Assembly: GCA_002841765.1 (NCBI GenBank)
Contig: PHAV01000006.1
Coordinates: 77,975-141,974, forward strand
Origin: Deltaproteobacteria bacterium HGW-Deltaproteobacteria-4
GTDB taxonomy: Bacteria > Desulfobacterota > Desulfuromonadia > Desulfuromonadales > UBA2197
Reading direction: 5' to 3'
DNA: 64,000 nt
Positions within the stretch are counted from its first letter, which is position 1, and each line of letters opens with the position of its first letter. Below, one piece after another: positions 3,406 to 36,629 of this stretch. The notes under the pieces were generated by a model that saw only the letters and a program-made list of their open reading frames with translations, had not been told where the DNA came from and ran no database searches. Both the position numbers and the translations under genes were made by a program.

Positions 3406-4536
3406 ATGCAAAGCCAGGTCTTTATGACCGATATGCGCACCGGGAACCGGGAGAATCTCCACGACAAGCTGGAGAGATTGGTTGCCTTGGCCGGCCTTCC
3501 CGGCGTGGTCAGTAAAGGGGATCTCACCGCCATCAAGATTCATTTTGGCGAGCGCGGCGGGCATGCTTATATCCGTCCGACCTTTATCCGTCGCCTTGTC
3601 GACAAGATCAAGGTGGCCGGCGGCAAGCCCTTTCTCACCGATTCCTGCACCCTTTATCCGGGTCAGCGCAAGGAAGCTGTCTCGGCGCTGGTCTGCGGCA
3701 TCGAGAACGGTTTTGACTTTGCCGTCGCCGGCGCGCCGCTGATCCTTTGTGACGGGCTGCGCGGCCACTCGGCGCGGCGGGTGAAGATCCCCGGCGAGAT
3801 TCTGGAGGACGTCGATATCGCTCTCGGCATCCTCGAAGCCGATGCGCTGCTCTGCGTTTCCCACTTCAAATGTCACGAACTGACCGGTTTCGGCGGCGCT
3901 CTCAAAAATCTCGGTATGGGCTGTTCGAGTCGGGAAGGGAAGATGGAGCAGCACTCCAATGTTGCGCCGGAGGTGGCAGAGGCGGTCTGCACCGGCTGCG
4001 CCGCCTGCCTCAAAGCCTGCGCCCATGACGCCATTTTCATCGTCGCGAAGAAGGCAAAGATCGACGAAAAGCGCTGCGTCGGCTGCGGCCGCTGCATCTC
4101 CGTCTGTGAAGAGACGGCGATCCGTGTGCAATGGAATGAAGCGCCAGCTCTGGTCATGCAGAAGATGGCCGAATATGCTTTGGGGGCGACGGAAGGCAAG
4201 AAAGGAAAAACTCTTTATATCAACTTTGTGACTCAGGTCTCGCCGGCCTGTGACTGCTACGGCCATTCCGATTCCCCGATCGTCGCCGATCTCGGTATCC
4301 TCGCCTCCATCGACCCGGTTGCCCTTGATCAGGCCTGCGCCGATCTCGTTCTCGCCGCGCCGGGGCTGCCGAATACGGCGCTGCAGAGCGGTCAGGCACC
4401 GGGCGGCGACAAGTTTCGCGGTGTTCACCCTGATGTCCCCTGGGAAGTGCAGCTCGAGCACGCCGAGAAGATCGGCCTCGGCTCGCGTCGCTATGAGCTG
4501 GTCAACCTCCAGCCGAAGAATCCGAAAGGGTGGTAA
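3406..4536 (+). CDS. DUF362-family protein with an embedded 2x[4Fe-4S] ferredoxin domain
   Basis: Two CxxCxxCxxxC motifs (CTGCAACLKAC, CVGCGRCISVC) and DUF362-like flanks. Start set at MQSQVF behind GAGAGGA. Confidence 0.7.
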   Translation: MQSQVFMTDMRTGNRENLHDKLERLVALAGLPGVVSKGDLTAIKIHFGERGGHAYIRPTFIRRLVDKIKVAGGKPFLTDSCTLYPGQRKEAVSALVCGIENGFDFAVAGAPLILCDGLRGHSARRVKIPGEILEDVDIALGILEADALLCVSHFKCHELTGFGGALKNLGMGCSSREGKMEQHSNVAPEVAEAVCTGCAACLKACAHDAIFIVAKKAKIDEKRCVGCGRCISVCEETAIRVQWNEAPALVMQKMAEYALGATEGKKGKTLYINFVTQVSPACDCYGHSDSPIVADLGILASIDPVALDQACADLVLAAPGLPNTALQSGQAPGGDKFRGVHPDVPWEVQLEHAEKIGLGSRRYELVNLQPKNPKGW

Positions 4537-5877: not shown

Positions 5878-6978
5878 ATGGCCCGGAAAATTTTTGTCGC
5901 TGCCACCGGAAAAGATTGTGGAAAGACGACCACCAGCCTTTCACTTCTGCACCTCGCCAGTAAAAAATACGGCAAGGGCCGAGTCGGCTTCATGAAGCCC
6001 TTCGGGCCGAAACCCGCCGAGTACCGCGGGGTGATCGTCGATAAGGACGCCGCCCTCACCGCCGAGATCTTCGGTCTGGAGCAGGACCCCACCCTCCTTT
6101 CTCCGGTCGTTGTCGATCGCGCCACCACCCGTGCTTTTCTCGACGGAGAATTCACCGCCGCGTTCCTGCATGAGAAGATCCGCAGTGCCCTGGACGAACT
6201 CGAGCATCAATACGACTTCATTGTTATCGAGGGATCGGGACATGGTGGTGTCGGCTCGATCTTCGATCTCAGCAATGCCGAGGTGGCCAGGATCACCGAT
6301 GCTCCGGTGATGATCGTCACCGGCGGCGGCATCGGCAATGTCGTTGATGCCACCGCTCTCAACATCGCTCTTTTCCGCCAGGCAGGTGTCGAGGTCAAAC
6401 TGGTATTGACCAACAAGGTCGATCCGGCCAAACGGGAGCAGAGCCTGCACTACCTCACCCTCGCCTTTGCCCGCATCGGGGTGCCGGTGCGTATCGGCTT
6501 CGATTATGCACCGCTCCTTGCCAATCCGACCCTGAACCGGGTGGCAAAAGTCCTCGGGGAGACCTTGCGCGCCACCCCGCAGGAAGCGCAGCGGATTATC
6601 CTCCACCAGCAGCTCGGGGCCGCTTCGTCGCAACGGGTCATTGATCTTCTCGAAGATTCAACCCTGCTGATGGTCAACTCTTCTCGTGATGAACTCCTGG
6701 TAACGACTTCGTCCCTTTATCATCTCCCCGAATATAAAAGGAAAATTGCCGGACTCCTCATCGCCGGTCTCAACCCGATTTCGAAAATTACTCAGCAGAT
6801 CATCGATGATTCGGGGGTTCCTTATCTGCGGACGATGATCACCAATTCCGAGACCTTTACCCTCCTGTCCAACGACGTCTCGAAGACGACCGCCGATGAT
6901 AAAGAAAAGATTGAACTGATCTACAGTATGGCCGAGCGTCAGCTCGATTTCGACGCCATCGAAGCACTGGTGGTGTAG
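5878..6978 (+). CDS. BioD-like P-loop + DRTGG-domain protein (Pta N-terminal-domain-like)
   Basis: N-terminus IFVAATGKDCGKTTTSLSL (P-loop). Overall layout resembles the non-catalytic N-terminal half of long phosphotransacetylases. No PTA catalytic domain present. Confidence 0.6.
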   Translation: MARKIFVAATGKDCGKTTTSLSLLHLASKKYGKGRVGFMKPFGPKPAEYRGVIVDKDAALTAEIFGLEQDPTLLSPVVVDRATTRAFLDGEFTAAFLHEKIRSALDELEHQYDFIVIEGSGHGGVGSIFDLSNAEVARITDAPVMIVTGGGIGNVVDATALNIALFRQAGVEVKLVLTNKVDPAKREQSLHYLTLAFARIGVPVRIGFDYAPLLANPTLNRVAKVLGETLRATPQEAQRIILHQQLGAASSQRVIDLLEDSTLLMVNSSRDELLVTTSSLYHLPEYKRKIAGLLIAGLNPISKITQQIIDDSGVPYLRTMITNSETFTLLSNDVSKTTADDKEKIELIYSMAERQLDFDAIEALVV

Positions 6979-7830: not shown

Positions 7831-7954
7831 AAAAATCTCCTCAAATGGATAGACTGGGTTAGCGTAGCGTAACCCGAAGTTTTTTGGCAAGTGTAGCATA
7901 TTTTTCTTTGACTTTTATCCTGCTGACAATTACAACTGCCGCACAATCGATGAC

Positions 7955-8125
7955 CAAGCGGTCTGGTGCCGTACCCTTGCCGGTACGGATAATAGGGAAG
8001 CGGGTGCAAATCCCGCGCTGTCCCGCAACTGTCAGGGTGGACTGATCTCGCATAATCCCACTGGGGAAACCTGGGAAGGGGCGAGTGAGGGTTGATCCCC
8101 AAGCCAGGAAACCTGCCAAGCCGAC
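7955..8125 (+). promoter_or_regulatory. Cobalamin (B12) riboswitch
   Basis: GGTGCC ... AATAGGGAAGCGGGTGCAAATCCCGCGCTGTCCCGCAACTGT ... CCCACTGGGGAAACCTGGGAAGG ... AGCCAGGAAACCTGCC matches the conserved cobalamin-riboswitch core and B12-box blocks. Confidence 0.85.
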
Positions 8126-8190
8126 GCTGTTTTGGAACCTCCGTGGAAAGAGGGGCCGGAAGCGGAGGTCTATGCGCACCCTCGATTTCG

Positions 8191-8223
8191 AGCCCTATTC
8201 CGCCTGCGGAGTGGGGCTTTTTC
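8191..8223 (+). terminator. Putative expression-platform terminator of the B12 riboswitch
   Basis: AGCCCTATTCCGCCTGCGGAGTGGGGCT followed by TTTTT, 27 nt upstream of the ThiC-family start codon. Confidence 0.5.
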
Positions 8224-8249
8224 ATTACTGAATCATCTAAACCCAGGAG

Positions 8250-9566
8250 TTGAAATTCATGTTGACCCAGATCGAAGCTGCCCGCCAGGGCATCGTTACC
8301 CCGCAAATGGCCATTGTTGCCCGTGACGAACAACTCAGTGAAGCTTATATCCTGGAGAACGTCGCTAGCGGCAAGATCGTCATCCCCTGGAACCACAATC
8401 GTAAGCCGAAGGTTGTCGGCATCGGCAAGGGGCTCTCGACTAAGGTCAATGCCTCCATCGGCACCTCCTCCGATATTGTCGATTACGCTGCTGAAATCCG
8501 TAAAGCCATCGCTGCCGAGGAATCAGGCGCCGACACCCTGATGGAACTCTCGGTCGGCGGCGATCTCGACCGGGTGCGGCGCGAAGTCATCGCCAGCGTC
8601 GATTTGCCGGTCGGCAATGTCCCCCTTTACCAGGCCTTCTGCGAAGCAGCACGGCGTTATGGCGATCCCAACAAGCTCGACAAGGAGCTCCTTTTCGACC
8701 TCATCGAACAGCAGTGCAGCGATGGCATGGCCTTCATGGCGGTCCATTGCGGCATCAACCTTTACACCATCGAGCGCCTGCGCAAGCAGGGCTACCGTTA
8801 CGGCGGCCTGGTCAGCAAGGGCGGCGTCTCGATGGTAGCGTGGATGATCGCCAACCAGCAGGAGAATCCCCTTTACGAACACTTCGATCGGGTGGTAAGT
8901 ATCCTCAAGAAGTACGACACCGTCCTCTCCCTCGGCAACGGCCTGCGCGCCGGCGCGATCCACGACTCCTCCGATCGGGCGCAGATCCAGGAGCTCCTCA
9001 TCAACTGCGAGCTCGCCGAGCTCGGCCGCGACATGGGCTGCCAGATGCTGGTCGAAGGGCCCGGCCATGTCCCCCTCGACGAGATCGAAGGGAATATCCA
9101 GCTGCAAAAGCGCATGAGCGGCGGCGCCCCTTACTACATGCTCGGCCCCATTGCCTGCGATGTCGCCCCCGGCTTCGATCACATCACCGCCGCCATCGGC
9201 GCCGCCCAGTCGAGCCGCTACGGCGCCGACCTGATCTGCTATATCACCCCCGCCGAGCATCTCGCCCTCCCCAACGAAGAGGATGTGCGCATGGGGGTCA
9301 AGGCCGCCAAGATCGCCGCCTACATCGGCGACATGAACAAATATCCGGAGAAGGGGCGCGAGCGCGACAAGGAGATGTCGAAAGCGCGCCGCGATCTTGA
9401 TTGGGGGAAACAGTTCGAGCTCGCCCTCTACCCCGAAGATGCCAAGGCGATCCGCGCCAGTCGCACCCCCGAGGACGAAAATACCTGCACCATGTGCGGT
9501 GATTTCTGCGCTTCGCGCGGGGCCGGGAAGCTGTTTAACGGTGATCTCAAAGGGGACAAGATCTGA
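8250..9566 (+). CDS. bzaF: ThiC-family radical SAM enzyme, probable 5-hydroxybenzimidazole synthase (BzaF-type) rather than HMP-P synthase
   Basis: Short-form ThiC fold with C-terminal CTMCGDFC cluster motif. Deviates from canonical ThiC blocks (SLGNGLRAG, DSSDRAQ, YYMLGPIACDVAPGFDH). Sits behind a cobalamin riboswitch, not a TPP one. The thi operon elsewhere in the window lacks thiC. Confidence 0.65.
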   Translation: MKFMLTQIEAARQGIVTPQMAIVARDEQLSEAYILENVASGKIVIPWNHNRKPKVVGIGKGLSTKVNASIGTSSDIVDYAAEIRKAIAAEESGADTLMELSVGGDLDRVRREVIASVDLPVGNVPLYQAFCEAARRYGDPNKLDKELLFDLIEQQCSDGMAFMAVHCGINLYTIERLRKQGYRYGGLVSKGGVSMVAWMIANQQENPLYEHFDRVVSILKKYDTVLSLGNGLRAGAIHDSSDRAQIQELLINCELAELGRDMGCQMLVEGPGHVPLDEIEGNIQLQKRMSGGAPYYMLGPIACDVAPGFDHITAAIGAAQSSRYGADLICYITPAEHLALPNEEDVRMGVKAAKIAAYIGDMNKYPEKGRERDKEMSKARRDLDWGKQFELALYPEDAKAIRASRTPEDENTCTMCGDFCASRGAGKLFNGDLKGDKI

Positions 9567-9569
9567 ATT

Positions 9570-9656
9570 CACCACCCCCGACCCCTCCTTGTGAATAAGG
9601 AGGGGAGGTTTTGACCAAAGTCCCCCTCCTTGACAAGGAGGGGCTAGGGGTGGTGG
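9570..9656. repeat. Composite palindromic repeat (CACCACCCCC(A/G)(G/A)CCCCTCCTT family)
   Basis: Outer arms CACCACCCCCGACCCCTCCTT / AAGGAGGGGCTAGGGGTGGTGG with two decayed inner arms. Related copies at 12634, 40471, 63893 and the truncated 63991-64000. Confidence 0.8.
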
Positions 9657-9703: not shown

Positions 9704-10324
9704 ATGACGACTTCCCTCCTCCTCACCTTCCTCGGCGCGTCGTTGGCGATCACGGTGGCACCGGGGCCGGACAACCTCTTTATCCTCACCCAGGGGATTG
9801 CGCGGGGGCGGCGGGCGGCGATCATCACCGCCCTCGGCATGTGCAGCGGCATCAGCATTCATACCCTCGCTGCGGCGCTGGGGATCTCGGCGATCTTCGC
9901 GACTTCGGCCCTCGCCTTTAGCGCCGTCAAGTACGCCGGCGCCGCTTATCTCCTCTATCTTGCTTGTCTGACCCTGCGCCACAGCGGCGCGGTACGACTC
10001 GGGCAGGCGGATGCGCGGCCGGCGCTGGACCTCTTCAAACGCGGCTTCATCATGAACGTCCTCAACCCCAAGGTTGCCCTCTTCTTCCTCGCCTTTCTCC
10101 CCCAGTTCGTCAATCCGCAGAACGGTTCCGTCCCGGCGCAGATGCTCCTCCTCGGTGGCCTCTTCATGGCGCAGGCGGTGGTCCTCTTCACCACCCTCGG
10201 CTACTTTGCCGGGAGCATTGGTGGCTATCTGCTGGCGCGGCCGCGACTGGCGAAATATTTGGATGGTTTGACGGCTGGGGTCTTTACGGCGCTGGCGTTA
10301 CGGCTGGCTTTTGCGGAGAGATGA
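9704..10324 (+). CDS. LysE/RhtB-family amino-acid exporter
   Basis: 206 aa, six hydrophobic segments, N-terminal ...APGPDNLFILTQG... motif typical of LysE/RhtB. Confidence 0.8.
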   Translation: MTTSLLLTFLGASLAITVAPGPDNLFILTQGIARGRRAAIITALGMCSGISIHTLAAALGISAIFATSALAFSAVKYAGAAYLLYLACLTLRHSGAVRLGQADARPALDLFKRGFIMNVLNPKVALFFLAFLPQFVNPQNGSVPAQMLLLGGLFMAQAVVLFTTLGYFAGSIGGYLLARPRLAKYLDGLTAGVFTALALRLAFAER

Positions 10325-10489: not shown

Positions 10490-11530
10490 CTACGTGGCAA
10501 TAAATTTCAACGCCTTCTTGTGCGCGCCGTGCAGGGATAATCCGCGCAAAACCTCCGCGTCAACCCACTCCGCCTTCCCTTCAGCGACCCGCCCCCACTC
10601 TTCCACCTGACCACTGAAAAGCCGCAGATCGACCTTGAAATGGCTGTAGGCATGAGCGACCCGCCCGGTTTCGCGGATGTCACCCACGCCGTAAGTGGCA
10701 GCGAGAACGGCGGCGATGGTCGTTGGATCGTCTCTGACGGCGACGACGCAGGTCGGGAATTCCCAGAGGCCGCCGAGCATCCCGCTCAAGGGACGGCGTT
10801 CGACCCGCCAGCGATTGTCGCGTTCCAGCAGCAGGGCGACCTGCAGCACCGTCGGCACCGCCTTGGTCTTCCGTCTCTCCGGCAACGCGTCTTGCCGTCC
10901 CTGCGCGAAGGCATGACAATGCGCAGCGAGGGGACAGAGGGAACAGGTCGGTTTGGTCGGGGTGCAGCAGGTGGCGCCGAGGTCCATGATCGCCTGAGCG
11001 TAGTCACCGGCGCGCTCAGGCGGAGTCACCGCCTCGGCCGATTGCCAGAGGATCTTCTCCGCCGCTGAGCTGCGCGGGTCGCCATCAAGGGCGAGGAGGC
11101 GCACCAGCACCCGGCGGACATTGCCGTCGAGGATGACGCCGCGCTCGCCAAAGGCGATGGCGCGGATCGCCCCGGCGGTGGAGCGGCCGACGCCGGGAAG
11201 ATCGGTCAGCTCTTCGAGGGACGAGGGGAAAGAACCACCATAGTCGTTCATCACCCGCTGCGCCGCCGCATGCAGGTTGCGGGCGCGGGAGTAGTAACCG
11301 AGGCCGGCCCAGGCGTCGATCACCGCCTCGATCGGCGCGCTGGCGAGGGTGGCGACAGCGGGGAAACGGGCGAGGAAGCGCTGGTAATAGGGGATGACCG
11401 CCGTCACCGTCGTCTGCTGGAGCATGATCTCGGAGAGCCAGATGCAATAGGGATCAGAGGTGTGGCGCCACGGCAGGTCACGGCCGACCTGGCCGTACCA
11501 GGCGAGGAGGAGCGGGGCGATGGAGATCAA
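10490..11530 (-). CDS. mutY: A/G-specific adenine DNA glycosylase
   Basis: [23 protein letters not shown] and [11 protein letters not shown] blocks, Fe-S loop [20 protein letters not shown] start overlaps the hisC stop by 4 nt. Confidence 0.9.
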
Positions 11531-12579
11531 CCAATCTCCCCCAGCGCCTTCAACGTCGTCTCCATCTCCGCATCCGTGCCGATGGTAATCCGCATCCCGT
11601 GTGCCAGGAGCGGATCGGAGAAGTAGCGCACGAGAATCTTGCGGGCGAAGAGGGCATCGTAAACCCGCTTGCCATTTCCATCCGGCGGCGAGGCAAAGAC
11701 GAAGTTGGTGCGCGACTCGACGATGGTGTAGCCGATTTCCTTGAGACCGGCGATGAAGCGTTCGCGGGTGGCGCGGATCTTGGCGACGGTGGCGGCGAGG
11801 TGCGCCTGATCAGCGAGGGCGGCGCTGCCGGCGACGAGGGCGAGGCGGTCGAGGTGGTAGTGGTCGCGGATCTTGTCGAGGGCGGCGACTACCTCGGGGC
11901 GGGCGACGGCGAGGCCGAGGCGCATCCCGGCGAGGGAGTAGCTCTTGGAGAAGGTGCGGGTGACGACGACGTTTTCGTACTTCTTGACCAGCGCCATCGC
12001 CGTGAAGTCGGCGAAATCGACGTAGGCTTCATCGACGATCAGCATGCCTGCGCAGCGCTGCGCGATCTCCTCGATGTAGGCGAGGGGGAAGGAAAAACCG
12101 AGGGGGGCGTTCGGTGAGGTGAGGAAGAAAATCTTTCCCTCGAAACGGGCCGGGAAGTCCTTGATGCGGAAGTCGTCGGTGAGGCCGAAGGTCGTGATTC
12201 TCGCCCCCTGGATCTCGGCGAGGGTGGCGTAATAGGAGTAGGAAGGATGGATGTAGGCGACCTCCTCCTCTTCGCCGGCAAAGGCGCGGATCAGGTTGTT
12301 GAGGAGCTCGTCGGAACCGTTGGCGGTGATCACCCAACTCGGGTCAAACCCGTAAAGCTCCGCCGCCACCTGACGCATCTGTTTGCTGCTGGGGTCGGGG
12401 TATTTGCGCAGATTCTCGCCGTCAGCGCCGATCTCGGCGAGGAGCGCTTCCCGAACCTTCACCGAAGGCGGGTAAGGGTTTTCGTTGGTGTTGAGCTTGA
12501 TCCACGGCTCATGATCAGGGGGCTGGAAGCCGGGGACGTAGCCGGCCATGTCACGAATGGCTTTGCGTAAGGGTTGCAT
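11527..12579 (-). CDS. hisC: Histidinol-phosphate aminotransferase
   Basis: [12 protein letters not shown] motif and [17 protein letters not shown]-lysine block; 350 aa. Confidence 0.9.
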
Positions 12580-12633
12580 GGGAGACCTCGATTTGTTTAT
12601 GTGTGTTCTTGATCCAATAAATTTTGAGACCTT

Positions 12634-12676
12634 ACCACCCCCAGCCCCTCCTTGATAAGGAGGGGCTGGGGGTGGT
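12634..12676. repeat. Perfect 20-bp palindrome of the CACCACCCCC...CCTCCTT repeat family
   Basis: ACCACCCCCAGCCCCTCCTT-GAT-AAGGAGGGGCTGGGGGTGGT, checked base by base. Confidence 0.9.
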
Positions 12677-12681
12677 GGCTT

Positions 12682-13761
12682 TTAGTATTCTTCTAAAATC
12701 TCATACAGCGTATTCCGCTTCGCCGGCGTAAACCCCGCGCCGCGGGCAATTTCGACGATCTCCTCAATCGACAGGCGGAAGTCACAACCGGCGGCGGCGA
12801 CGACGTTTTCTTCTAACATGGTGCCGCCGAGGTCGTTGGCGCCGAAACGGAGCGCCACCTGGGCCATCATCGCGCCCTGCGTCACCCAGCTCGCCTGGAT
12901 GTTGTCGATATTCTGCAGAACAATACGCGACAGGGCGAGGACGCGCAGGTAGGCGACGCCGCTGGCGGTTTCGCCGCCGAGTTCGGTATTCCCCGGCTGG
13001 TAGGTCCAGGGGATAAAGGCTGTGAAGCCGCCGGTTCTGGCCTGCAGTTCACGGATGACGAGAAGGTGCTCGACAATATCTTCCGGCGCTTCGCTGCTAC
13101 CGAACATCATCGTCGCGGTGGTGCGCATGCCGAGGCGATGCGCCTCTTCCATCACCGCCAGCCAGTCGCTGGTGCCGATCTTGTTGGGGCTGATCGCCAG
13201 ACGGACGGAGTCGACGAGGACTTCGGCGCCGCCACCGGGGATGGAAGCGAGGCCGGCGGCCTTGAGGCGCCCCAGACAATCCTCCATGCTGATCCCCGAC
13301 TGTTTGGCGATGTGGATGACCTCGGCCGGGGAAAGGGAGTGGATCTGTACACTCGGGAAGCGGCTGCGGATGAGGCGAAAGAGTTCCTCGAACCATTCGA
13401 TGCGCAGCTCGGGATGGAGTCCTCCCTGCATGAGGAGCTGGGTACCTCCGTGCTCAACCAATCCCTGCACCTTTTCCATGATCGTTTCGTAATCGAGGAG
13501 GTAGCTGTCGGCGTCGTCAAGGTTGCGGTAAAAGGCGCAAAACTTACACTTCGAGGTGCAGACGTTGGTGTAGTTGACATTGCGGTCGATGACGAAGGTC
13601 ACGCGGTGCTGGGGATGTTTTTTCTCGCGGATGGCGTCGGCGAGCTGGCCGAGGGCGAGAAGGTCGGCTTCGCGCAGCAGCCAGAGGGCCTCGTCGCGGT
13701 CGATGGGAGTGCCGGCGGTGATTTTATTTTGGATAATCTCAAATGGTTTCATTGGCGTCAT
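12682..13761 (-). CDS. mqnC: Radical SAM cyclic dehypoxanthinyl-futalosine synthase (MqnC-type)
   Basis: DRNVNYTNVCTSKCKFCAFYR cluster motif, QGGLHPEL and IHSLSPAEV blocks. I assigned MqnC versus MqnE from remembered family signatures. Confidence 0.7.
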   Translation of the reverse strand: MTPMKPFEIIQNKITAGTPIDRDEALWLLREADLLALGQLADAIREKKHPQHRVTFVIDRNVNYTNVCTSKCKFCAFYRNLDDADSYLLDYETIMEKVQGLVEHGGTQLLMQGGLHPELRIEWFEELFRLIRSRFPSVQIHSLSPAEVIHIAKQSGISMEDCLGRLKAAGLASIPGGGAEVLVDSVRLAISPNKIGTSDWLAVMEEAHRLGMRTTATMMFGSSEAPEDIVEHLLVIRELQARTGGFTAFIPWTYQPGNTELGGETASGVAYLRVLALSRIVLQNIDNIQASWVTQGAMMAQVALRFGANDLGGTMLEENVVAAAGCDFRLSIEEIVEIARGAGFTPAKRNTLYEILEEY

Positions 13762-13770
13762 GTTGTGGAT

Positions 13771-13838
13771 GGGCGACCCACCGGGTCGCCCCTACGGAAA
13801 ATTGGTTTGGCGTGTAGGGGCGACCCGGTGGGTCGCCC
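13771..13838. repeat. Two inverted REP units (GGGCGACCCACCGGGTCGCCCCTAC / GTAGGGGCGACCCGGTGGGTCGCCC)
   Basis: Units at 13771-13795 and 13814-13838, between mqnE and mqnC. Confidence 0.85.
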
Positions 13839-13847
13839 GCTTGGGCA

Positions 13848-14927
13848 TCAATAAGCCCGCAGCTCGTTATACAAGGTATCCCGCTCCACCGGGATTTTCC
13901 CGGCCTCGCGGATCAATCCGCAGAGCTGCTCTTTGGAGAGGGCCTGCGGCGAAGCGGCGCCGGCGTCGTGGCCGATCTTCTCCTCAATCACCGTGCCGTC
14001 GAGATCGTTGACCCCGAAGGTGAGGCTGACCTGGGCGATCTTGAGGCCGAGCATGACCCAGTAGGCCTTGATGTGTGCAAAGTTGTCGAGATAGAGGCGG
14101 CTGATCGCCAACGTCTTGAGGGCATCGATCCCCCCTGGTCCTTTGGCGCCGGCAATCTTGGTGTTGTCGGGCTGGAAGGCGAGGGGGATGAAGGCCTGAA
14201 AACCGTGGGTCTGATCCTGTAAGGCCCGGAGCTTGTGGAGATGATCGACGCGGTCGGTCGCGGTTTCGATGTGGCCGAAGAGCATCGTTGCGTTGCTCTT
14301 TAATCCGGTGCGATGCGCCAAGGCGGTGACTTCCAGCCAGCGTTCGCCGGAGATCTTCTCCGGGCAGATCTTTTCCCGCACTCGCGCCCCGAGGATCTCG
14401 GCGCCACCGCCGGGCATCGAGCCGAGGCCGGCGAGTTTGAGTTCTTCGATGACCGATTCGACACTCTGGCCGGTGAGGCGGGCAAAGTAGTCGATCTCGA
14501 CCGCGGTGAAGGCCTTGATATGCAGATCCGGTGAGTCGGCGCGAATAGCGGCGAGCATCTCCAGATAGAAGTCAAAGGGGAGGTCGGGGTGGAGGCCGCC
14601 GACCATGTGCAGTTCGGTGGCGCCGGCGGCCTGGGCTTCGGCGGCCTTGCGGAGGATCTCATCCAGCATCATGGTATAGCTGCCGTTCTCCCCCTCTTCC
14701 TTGCTGAAGGCGCAGAAGGTGCAGCGGTTGACGCAGATATTGGTGTAGTTGATGTGACGGTTGATATTGAAGTAGACCTTGTCACCGTGCTTACGGTGAT
14801 TGGCCAAGGCGGCGAGTTCGCCGATGGCGAGGAGGTCGTCGCTAGCAAAGAGGGCAAGGGCATCGCTGTCGGAAAGACGGACACCGGCTTCGATCTTGCT
14901 GCGGATTAAAGGAAAGAGATTGGTCAT
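13848..14927 (-). CDS. mqnE: Radical SAM aminofutalosine synthase (MqnE-type)
   Basis: NRHINYTNICVNRCTFCAF cluster motif, VGGLHPDL and HIKAFTAVEI blocks. Start moved to MTNLFPL (ATG 14927); the track extension would overlap ubiX. Confidence 0.7.
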   Translation of the reverse strand: MTNLFPLIRSKIEAGVRLSDSDALALFASDDLLAIGELAALANHRKHGDKVYFNINRHINYTNICVNRCTFCAFSKEEGENGSYTMMLDEILRKAAEAQAAGATELHMVGGLHPDLPFDFYLEMLAAIRADSPDLHIKAFTAVEIDYFARLTGQSVESVIEELKLAGLGSMPGGGAEILGARVREKICPEKISGERWLEVTALAHRTGLKSNATMLFGHIETATDRVDHLHKLRALQDQTHGFQAFIPLAFQPDNTKIAGAKGPGGIDALKTLAISRLYLDNFAHIKAYWVMLGLKIAQVSLTFGVNDLDGTVIEEKIGHDAGAASPQALSKEQLCGLIREAGKIPVERDTLYNELRAY

Positions 14928-14934
14928 GGTCGTT

Positions 14935-15552
14935 TCAGGGTTCCTCCCCCCAAGGGATGAAGAGGGCGTGCTTGATGCGCAGGCTGTCGAGAATCTTGCC
15001 GATGACAAAGTCGACGAGATCGGCCACCGTCTGCGGTTGACGGTAGAAGGCGGGCATCGCCGGGATGATCTGCGCGCCGCATTCGGCAACGGTTAAAAGG
15101 TTGCGGAGGTGGATGGAGCTCAAGGGGGTTTCACGCGGGACAATGAGGAGTTCGCGTCGCTCCTTGAGGACGACATCGGCAACCCTTTCGATGAGATTGC
15201 TGCCGGCGCCACTCGCGACCCGTCCCAGCGTCCCCATCGAGCAGGGGACGATCACCAGCGCGTCCGGGGCCGAGGTGCCGCTCGCCACCGGGGCGAAGAG
15301 GTCATTGTTGGCGTAGTGGCGCAGCTGGTAGCTGGCAAAGTGGCTGCGGATCAGCTCGCGGCTGACCTCGATATCCGTCGGCCAGTCAAGGCCGGTCTCG
15401 TAGTGCAGCACTTGGCGTCCCGCGTCGGTGAGAAGGAGGGTGACGCGGCAGTCGGCCTTTAACAGTTCCTCGACCAGGCGCAGGCCGTAGATCGAGCCGG
15501 AAGCTCCGCAGATAGCGACGACGATGTTTTTCATAGGGTGTTGACCAATCAT
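14935..15552 (-). CDS. ubiX: UbiX-family flavin prenyltransferase
   Basis: IVVAICGASGSIYGLRL N-terminus and VIVPCSMGTLG block. ATGA overlap with the upstream prenyltransferase; an alternative start at MKNIVV is possible. Confidence 0.85.
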   Translation of the reverse strand: MIGQHPMKNIVVAICGASGSIYGLRLVEELLKADCRVTLLLTDAGRQVLHYETGLDWPTDIEVSRELIRSHFASYQLRHYANNDLFAPVASGTSAPDALVIVPCSMGTLGRVASGAGSNLIERVADVVLKERRELLIVPRETPLSSIHLRNLLTVAECGAQIIPAMPAFYRQPQTVADLVDFVIGKILDSLRIKHALFIPWGEEP

Positions 15553-16412
15553 TTAATCAATACATCCGCCAGGGTGAAGCAGAAAATCGTCACGCTGATG
15601 TAGCCGTTCATATTGAAGAAGGCGGCGTCGAGCTTGGAAAGATCGCCGGGTTTGACGAGGTGGTGCTCCCAGGCGATCATCAGGCTGATGACGCCGATGC
15701 CGGCATAGTAGATCATCCCGAGGGGGAGTCCCTGCGGGATGAGCAGCAGGAGTCCGACCATCAGCCCGTGCAGCACCTTGCCGAGGAGGATTGCCCCCTT
15801 CTCGCCGAGGCGGACCGGGATCGAATGCAGCCCCTGCTTGCGGTCGAAGTCGAGATCCTGCAGGGCGTAGAAGATATCGAAACCGGCGACCCAGAATAAG
15901 ACCGCCAGCGCCAGTGCGAAAATCGGCCACTCCACCGTGCTGCGCAGGGCGATCCATGCACCCAAAGGGGCACCGGCGAGACAGATGCCGAGGACGATGT
16001 GGGCCAGGGAGGTGAAGCGCTTGCAGTAAGCGTAAAGGATGAAGAAAGCGAGGACCAGCGGCGACAGATAGAAGCACAGGGGATTGAGCTGCCAGGCCGC
16101 TACCAACAGGAGGAGGGTCGAGCCGGCGACAAAAATCCATGCTTCCTGTCGGGAGATGATCCCGGCGGGGATCTGCCGACCGGCGGTACGCGGATTTTCG
16201 GCATCGATGCGGGCGTCGATGATGCGGTTCAGCCCCATGGCGGCGTTGCGCGCTCCGACCATGGCGAGGCAGATCCAGCCGATCTGGGCAGCGGTCGGTG
16301 GCTGGCCGTTGGCCAGAGATGCAAGGGTCGCACCCATCAGGGCGAAGGGGAAAGCGAAGATGGTATGGGAGAACTTGATCATCTCCAGCAAATGACGAAT
16401 TTTGCTAAACAT
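15549..16412 (-). CDS. UbiA-family aromatic polyprenyltransferase (MqnP-like by context)
   Basis: Polytopic membrane protein with an N..GLNRIIDARID Asp-rich motif. Lies in an operon with ubiX, mqnE and mqnC. Confidence 0.8.
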   Translation of the reverse strand: MFSKIRHLLEMIKFSHTIFAFPFALMGATLASLANGQPPTAAQIGWICLAMVGARNAAMGLNRIIDARIDAENPRTAGRQIPAGIISRQEAWIFVAGSTLLLLVAAWQLNPLCFYLSPLVLAFFILYAYCKRFTSLAHIVLGICLAGAPLGAWIALRSTVEWPIFALALAVLFWVAGFDIFYALQDLDFDRKQGLHSIPVRLGEKGAILLGKVLHGLMVGLLLLIPQGLPLGMIYYAGIGVISLMIAWEHHLVKPGDLSKLDAAFFNMNGYISVTIFCFTLADVLIK

Positions 16413-36458: not shown

Positions 36459-36509
36459 AGATATTCGGTTGACTTTTTCCGCGGCACCCTGCTAGCTTAA
36501 CATCACAAT

Positions 36510-36610
36510 TTAGCCCTAGGGGAGTGACTGACGTCACTGAGAGTTTCGCCGCCAGCGGGACGACCCTTTGAACCTGATCCGGCTCATACCGGCGTAGGGA
36601 AGCGGCGCAT
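36510..36610 (+). promoter_or_regulatory. TPP (thiamine pyrophosphate) riboswitch
   Basis: AGGGGAGTG...CTGAGAG...ACCCTTTGAACCTGATCCGGCTCATACCGGCGTAGGGAAG matches the THI-box core. Confidence 0.85.
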
Positions 36611-36629
36611 CCTCCCGAACGAATTATGA

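Follow-up and report, generated by a model that had tools for sequence, protein, structure and literature searches.

Does a ThiC-family gene that stands directly behind a cobalamin riboswitch serve thiamine synthesis, or does it make part of a cobamide? The question is raised by a locus in a stretch of 64,000 nucleotides from the uncultured Desulfuromonadales bacterium HGW-Deltaproteobacteria-4 (assembly GCA_002841765.1, contig PHAV01000006.1, positions 77,975 to 141,974 of the forward strand). This stretch is called the window below, and positions refer to it unless a contig or another locus is named. The assembly amounts to 3.02 Mb in 30 contigs and is rated 100% complete. An initial annotation, made from the sequence of the window, had proposed that the gene is probably bzaF, encoding 5-hydroxybenzimidazole synthase, and not a thiamine thiC. 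The present analysis bears this out through 87% identity to a Geobacter sulfurreducens protein, membership in a clade with 99/100 support, the exchange of an active-site Asp for Asn, and the existence of a separate, canonical thiC in the genome. The locus is very probably a one-gene regulatory unit, in which a cobalamin riboswitch is followed by bzaF and the product makes the lower ligand, 5-hydroxybenzimidazole (5-OHBza), under cobamide feedback. The coordinates of the features are collected in Table 1.

The RNA element is clear. In the Rfam scan of the whole window, the leader of the gene matches the cobalamin riboswitch model RF00174 over positions 1-189 of 189, with 123.5 bits and an E value of 1.6e-30, against a gathering score of 31.5 bits. 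This match is far beyond chance and confirms the riboswitch core that had been recognized before the ThiC-family gene. The same scan also gives a thiamine pyrophosphate (TPP) riboswitch at 36508-36617. In the hairpin next to the GGUGCAAAUCC core, both arms co-vary, reading GCGGG/CCCGC in the window, GAAGG/CCTTC in the orthologous locus L008 and GAGGG/CCCTC in L010. The leaders of these two close relatives are near-identical to that of the window and align with it over the whole length, including the terminator. The hairpin previously described as terminator-like has 13 pairs (8190-8219) with TTTTT at 8218-8222; it is the top terminator-like site of the region in the terminator scan, its energy when folded alone is -22.2 kcal/mol, and it is kept in L008 and L010, as is the AGGAG Shine-Dalgarno sequence of the gene.

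The gene had been described as coding for 438 residues. The open reading frame (ORF) is real, its product matching PF01964 with 597.5 bits over residues 3-420, but the length has to be corrected. The listed ORF begins at TTG 8250 and has 438 residues, whereas ATG 8259 gives 435. The latter is the better start, because the position of the Shine-Dalgarno sequence agrees with it and the orthologs have the same length and N-terminus. The closest relatives in the protein database, 86-97% identical, come from Geobacter, Geomonas, Citrifermentans, Pelobacter and Desulfuromonas. The alignment with AAR36397.1 of G. sulfurreducens PCA is free of gaps (378/435 identical residues); this protein is named 5-hydroxybenzimidazole synthase by UniRef and shares a cluster with a G. 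anodireducens protein, and the G. pickeringii ortholog, 88% identical to the window protein, has the RefSeq name BzaF. According to PMC7726332, which cites Hazra et al. 2015, BzaF (GSU3005) produces 5-OHBza as the lower ligand for the cobamide of G. sulfurreducens. AAR36397.1 is equated with GSU3005 on the strength of the names and of the same source. The other ThiC-family protein of the genome is 46-48% identical to the window protein and 47% identical to AAR36397.1. Judged by orthology, the diagnostic active-site residue and gene context, the predicted protein is a BzaF-type ortholog, and we infer from this that it catalyzes the conversion of 5-aminoimidazole ribotide (AIR) to 5-OHBza.

The phylogeny agrees with this assignment. 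A careful maximum-likelihood tree of 48 sequences was built from the window protein, the genome's own ThiC, named Geobacter proteins, representatives at 50% identity from a search of 1.84 billion proteins, and ThiC from other genomes of the phylum. The BzaA/BzaB reference was a pair from a metagenome contig (L107), encoded behind its own cobalamin riboswitch. In this tree, the window protein groups with the proteins of G. sulfurreducens, G. metallireducens and G. pickeringii in a clade supported at 99/100, which two remoter representatives (63% and 57% identical) join at 100/100 and 100/98. The BzaA/BzaB pair constitutes a clade of its own (100/94), and the genome's ThiC lies outside both. The window protein thus falls with Geobacter BzaF, apart from ThiC and from BzaA/BzaB, and a quick tree of 80 sequences gives the same picture.

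The active site offers a sharper distinction. In Arabidopsis ThiC (AtThiC), Asp383 hydrogen-bonds the N3 of AIR, and this residue, which is Asn in BzaF, is among the few differences between the two enzymes (PMC12661338, PMC11117688). The numbering offset of the 4S25 chain places Asp383 at the D of SIGDGLRPG; since the window protein reads SLGNGLRAG where ThiC has this motif, its residue 227 is the corresponding Asn. In an alignment of 17 BzaF-clade members and 34 ThiC sequences, Asn occupies this position in the window protein and all 17 clade members, Asp in 34/34 ThiC. Altogether, six positions are fixed within each group and different between them (D258E, T320A, D383N, P387A, C443S and L482I, AtThiC numbering), and N228, which all ThiC have as Asn, is replaced by Ser in 16 of the 17 clade members. 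Conserved, on the other hand, are the three cluster cysteines, the metal-binding histidines and, again in AtThiC numbering, Glu422, Arg386 and Tyr449, and the window protein keeps the metal ligands H270 and H334, E266, R230 and the cluster cysteines C410, C413 and C417. The initial annotation had named three blocks, SLGNGLRAG, DSSDRAQ and AAYIGDMNKY, at which the protein departs from canonical ThiC. All three are present and differ in ThiC, but the general signature of the BzaF clade comprises N227 and A231 only, DSSDRAQ and AAYIGDMNKY being specific to the Desulfuromonadales/Geobacter subclade.

Some points weigh against a bzaF whose product would be the final lower ligand and whose riboswitch would act as an off switch. 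The protein passes the NCBIfam ThiC equivalog cut-offs (NF009895, 592 against 410; TIGR00190, 549 against 460). One PF00891 O-methyltransferase (92 bits, with a weak BchU-like best match) is encoded in the genome. Finally, the off-switch direction and the anti-terminator are predictions from folding.

The first of these points would suit a rival reading, in which the gene codes for an additional ThiC isozyme under B12 control whose product is the pyrimidine of thiamine, hydroxymethylpyrimidine phosphate (HMP-P). So would the name "phosphomethylpyrimidine synthase ThiC", which the orthologs bear in most public records; in some sources they are called 5-hydroxybenzimidazole synthase. However, both BzaF-clade representatives and the one BzaB representative that were scanned exceed the cut-offs of the ThiC equivalog models too; the models therefore cannot discriminate between these proteins, and we rejected them as a discriminator. 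Among the NCBIfam 20.0 matches of the window protein there is no BzaF model, and the score against the BzaB model TIGR04386 is 533.9 bits, below the cut-off of 700. Against a thiamine isozyme stand also the Asn in place of the invariant Asp383, an identity to the genome's own TPP-controlled ThiC that is far below the 87% to G. sulfurreducens BzaF, and the location of the orthologs in cobUTS rather than thi operons.

The gene inventory argues in the same direction. Exactly two PF01964 genes exist in the genome. The second lies on contig 6 and codes for 434 residues with the motif SLGDGFRPG; it follows a fused thiE-thiD and stands behind a TPP riboswitch. Of the two TPP riboswitches in the genome, one precedes this thiC and the other heads the thi operon of the window, so that neither precedes bzaF. 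The statement that the window's thi operon contains no thiC is therefore correct, the canonical gene being on contig 6, and bzaF is not the sole thiC-like gene of the organism. Taken together, we consider a thiamine-producing isozyme extremely unlikely.

If the gene is bzaF, the next question concerns the cobamide to which its product would be attached. It had been pointed out that no bzaC, bzaD, bzaE or cobT follows the gene. This stands for BzaD, which was not found anywhere in the genome (the best BzaD/BzaE-like match has 133 bits against a BzaD cut-off of 450), but cobT does exist: beyond the window, ~40 kb upstream, the same contig carries a cobO-cobU-cobT-cobS-cobC-cbiA operon with its own cobalamin riboswitch 42 kb upstream. 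BluB was likewise not found in the genome (top score 37 bits, cut-off 150), nor was BzaB above its cut-off, both PF01964 proteins falling below it. Since CbiD and CbiB are encoded as well, de novo anaerobic corrin synthesis is likely. In the published scheme, bzaF alone leads to a 5-OHBza lower ligand (PMC6461909, PMC7617358). With cobT, cobS, cobC and cobU present and BluB, BzaB and BzaD not found above their cut-offs, 5-OHBza is therefore the predicted final ligand, as in G. sulfurreducens, and the final cobamide is probably the 5-OHBza form. The lower-ligand chemistry, which the initial annotation had left open, can accordingly be narrowed to this prediction.

We have also considered that the product is further modified, e.g., O-methylated to 5-methoxybenzimidazole, so that the cobamide would be other than the 5-OHBza form. 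BzaC is presumably a PF00891 member, and the contig-5 enzyme is the only clear family-2 O-methyltransferase of the genome. It lies, however, beside a DUF454 gene, and the neighboring ORFs that were scanned match no cobamide family. The genome scan found no cobalamin riboswitch on contig 5; the three in the genome are the bzaF leader and the one before the cob operon, both on contig 19, which is the contig of the window, and the one before cbiM on contig 20. The low BzaD/BzaE-like score also speaks against further modification, and extra bza genes stand beside bzaF in 0/80 orthologous loci, a weak argument given that the mapping used cob queries only. A modified ligand is on these grounds very unlikely.

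Two further observations concern the other cobalamin riboswitches. The cob operon is trailed on the same strand by a gene for a 583-residue protein in which aminodeoxychorismate synthase (PabB) is fused to a PRK07546-like C-terminal domain. The riboswitch on contig 20 (119231-119366, minus strand) scores 53 bits over a partial model, positions 47-167, and the cobalt transporter CbiM encoded behind it has an N-terminal extension of 87 residues.

The mechanism that we propose starts from what is directly observed, i.e., the RNA class, the terminator, the orthology to BzaF and the gene inventory. BzaF, a radical S-adenosylmethionine (SAM) enzyme and ThiC paralog, would rearrange AIR to 5-OHBza, which CobT, CobS and CobC would then couple to the corrinoid, yielding a [5-OHBza]cobamide of the Factor III type, as in G. 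sulfurreducens. When the finished cobamide is abundant, it would bind to the aptamer, the terminator would form, and transcription of bzaF would stop. When it is scarce, an anti-terminator would form instead and bzaF would be made. The candidate anti-terminator was derived by folding 8134-8206 without the 3' arm of the terminator, upon which ~8143-8163 pairs with ~8185-8203 at -28.7 kcal/mol. It is because the 5' arm of the terminator finds this partner once the 3' arm is omitted that an alternative structure can be predicted. As for the start of transcription, TTGACT (7908-7913) and TACAAC (7931-7936), separated by a gap of 17 nt, may be guessed by eye to be a promoter before the aptamer; the pair is not among the sites listed by the consensus scan. 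Another terminator-like hairpin, with a T6 run, is found at 7855-7876 on the plus strand, between the start of the divergent M48 protease gene and this putative promoter region.

The comparison of the 80 orthologous loci shows where the arrangement of the window departs from that of its relatives. In 69 of them, nucleotide-loop genes (cobU, cobT, cobS, cobC, cbiA) lie on the same strand as the bzaF ortholog, at a distance of at most 300 nt in 60 of these 69. A common order is cobU-cobT-cobS-cobC-cbiA-bzaF, which is matched by the numbering of the G. sulfurreducens genes in PMC7726332 (cobU, GSU3010; bzaF, GSU3005). The arrangement of the window, i.e., a DRTGG-like gene, the M48 protease gene, bzaF, lysE and mutY, recurs in three loci (L008, L009 and L010), and neither arrangement is seen in the remaining eight, six of which have less than 2.5 kb of upstream sequence. 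A cobalamin riboswitch was found upstream on the same strand in 9 of the 11 loci scanned with Rfam. In six of them it heads the cob operon at a distance of ~4.5 kb, and in one it lies ~2.8 kb upstream, before cobU; in L008 and L010 it is immediately upstream of bzaF, as in the window.

The origin of this riboswitch was considered as well. Between the bzaF riboswitch and that of the genome's cob operon, the conserved core alone can be aligned, and the idea that the former is a recent duplicate of the latter was rejected. As the L008 and L010 leaders align fully and the cob-operon riboswitch in its core only, we conclude that bzaF left the cob operon in the lineage of the window and is served there by a distinct riboswitch. 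Apart from this relocation with a dedicated riboswitch, which is confined to a narrow lineage, nothing about the locus is unusual. Separately, matches to the atoC RNA motif (RF01733, 70-77 bits) were seen 5.7-6.7 kb downstream of the bzaF start in Geomonas and Geomesophilobacter loci (L053:11792-11882, L069:12736-12826, L087:11699-11789).

A LysE-type exporter gene follows bzaF, as had been noted, and the two could form a riboswitch-controlled unit that makes free 5-OHBza and exports it for cross-feeding. The genes are on the same strand, the spacer is 137 nt, and the neighborhood is common to three close relatives. Yet among the 80 loci, lysE is next to bzaF solely in these three, i.e., the adjacency is confined to the four closest genomes of 81 when the window is counted. 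In L008, the closest relative (BzaF 96% identical), an amidohydrolase-like ORF (~3570-4334, plus strand, MTLRDYQLFDAHLHIID...), absent from the window, intervenes between bzaF and lysE. Two dispersed repetitive extragenic palindromic (REP)-like elements fill the window's spacer and jointly fold into a very stable structure (-72 kcal/mol), and the palindrome CCCTCCTT-N(2-10)-AAGGAGGG occurs in 60 copies in the genome. These elements are likely an RNA-end or insulating structure, unspecific to bzaF; another copy is found at 12646-12664, between hisC and mqnC. The matches of the LysE protein are to exporter families for amino acids and homoserine lactones, all of them below the NCBIfam equivalog cut-offs. 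In view of the narrow adjacency, the intervening ORF in L008 and the dispersed palindromes, a functional link between bzaF and LysE was judged unlikely and an export unit is given a very slim chance; the LysE neighborhood looks incidental. A more far-reaching scenario would be that bzaF was excised from the cob operon and set under a private riboswitch beside the exporter, lower-ligand synthesis being thereby uncoupled from nucleotide-loop assembly and free 5-OHBza released to neighbors. We regard this as a long shot.

Compared with known systems, the locus is of the Geobacter type. With G. sulfurreducens BzaF it has in common, besides 87% identity over 435 residues, the clade and the Asn, that there is a single gene and not a bzaA/bzaB pair, that the genome has a separate thiC and cobUTSC, and that control is by a cobalamin riboswitch. 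Geobacter-type bzaF genes are reported to sit behind such riboswitches. In most Geobacter-type genomes, however, bzaF is the last or an inner gene of a cobU-cobT-cobS-(cobC-cbiA) operon and is under the riboswitch of that operon, whereas in the window and the three close relatives it stands alone between the M48 protease gene and lysE; in the window, 40 kb away from the cob operon, a riboswitch and a terminator of its own precede it.

With ThiC (Arabidopsis, 4S25; Caulobacter, 3EPM; the contig-6 gene), the window BzaF shares the PF01964 fold family, the substrate AIR, the C-terminal Fe-S cysteines, the metal-binding histidines, Glu422 and Arg386. Its identity to the ThiC of its own genome is ~47%, and it differs in the clade-specific substitutions, the riboswitch class and the cob rather than thi neighbors found in its relatives; it has neither the conserved Asp383 nor the TPP-riboswitch/thi context of ThiC. 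BzaA and BzaB of the Eubacterium limosum/Moorella type are likewise ThiC paralogs behind a cobalamin riboswitch, which in L107 lies at 6423-6625 and is followed by two tandem ThiC-like genes, and they perform the same overall step, AIR to 5-OHBza (PMC7617358). Unlike the window BzaF, they are encoded by two genes, form a separate clade and retain Asp383; in 301 genomes of this phylum, no BzaB scored above the cut-off.

The locus is thus a known Geobacter-type BzaF, of a kind known since 2015 in Geobacter relatives. Hazra et al. 2015 and Mehta et al. 2015 are said to have established the BzaF system for Geobacter and Desulfuromonas, and beyond the relocation there is no new biology over that work. 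The relocation of bzaF with a dedicated riboswitch, the sole new detail, is a small example of the reshuffling of riboswitch-gene units. The assignment corrects a common mis-annotation, most public records labeling such genes thiC. It also predicts that this uncultured bacterium makes 5-hydroxybenzimidazolyl cobamide and not cobalamin, which bears on which neighbors could use its corrinoid.

Table 1. Positions of the features discussed (window coordinates unless a contig is given; coordinates in individual loci in brackets)
Feature	Position	Strand	Basis or remark
Cobalamin riboswitch aptamer (class I, RF00174)	7947-8134	+	cmscan, Rfam
Candidate anti-terminator, upstream segment pairing with 5' arm of terminator	8143-8203	+	folding prediction
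Intrinsic terminator (expression platform), 13-bp stem, loop CTGC, then T5	8190-8222	+	terminator scan; fold
Shine-Dalgarno AGGAG, 9 nt ahead of ATG 8259	8245-8249	+	direct reading
bzaF, predicted 5-hydroxybenzimidazole synthase, ThiC-family radical SAM enzyme, 435 aa	8259-9566	+	PF01964; orthology
Two REP-like palindromes CCCTCCTT...AAGGAGGG in bzaF-lysE spacer	9583-9642 (copies 9583-9604, 9624-9642)	.	motif and fold
LysE/RhtB-family exporter gene, probably outside the system	9704-10324	+	PF01810, 113 bits
cob-operon riboswitch and cobO-cobU-cobT-cobS-cobC-cbiA	contig 19: 43631-50600 (L093:231-7175)		outside window
Family-2 O-methyltransferase, the genome's only clear one	contig 5: 99309-100298 (L118:1132-2121)	+	PF00891

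Further downstream, on the minus strand at 10490-16412, lie mutY, hisC and a menaquinone cluster of the futalosine pathway (mqnC, mqnE, a ubiX-type prenyltransferase gene and an mqnP-like prenyltransferase gene).

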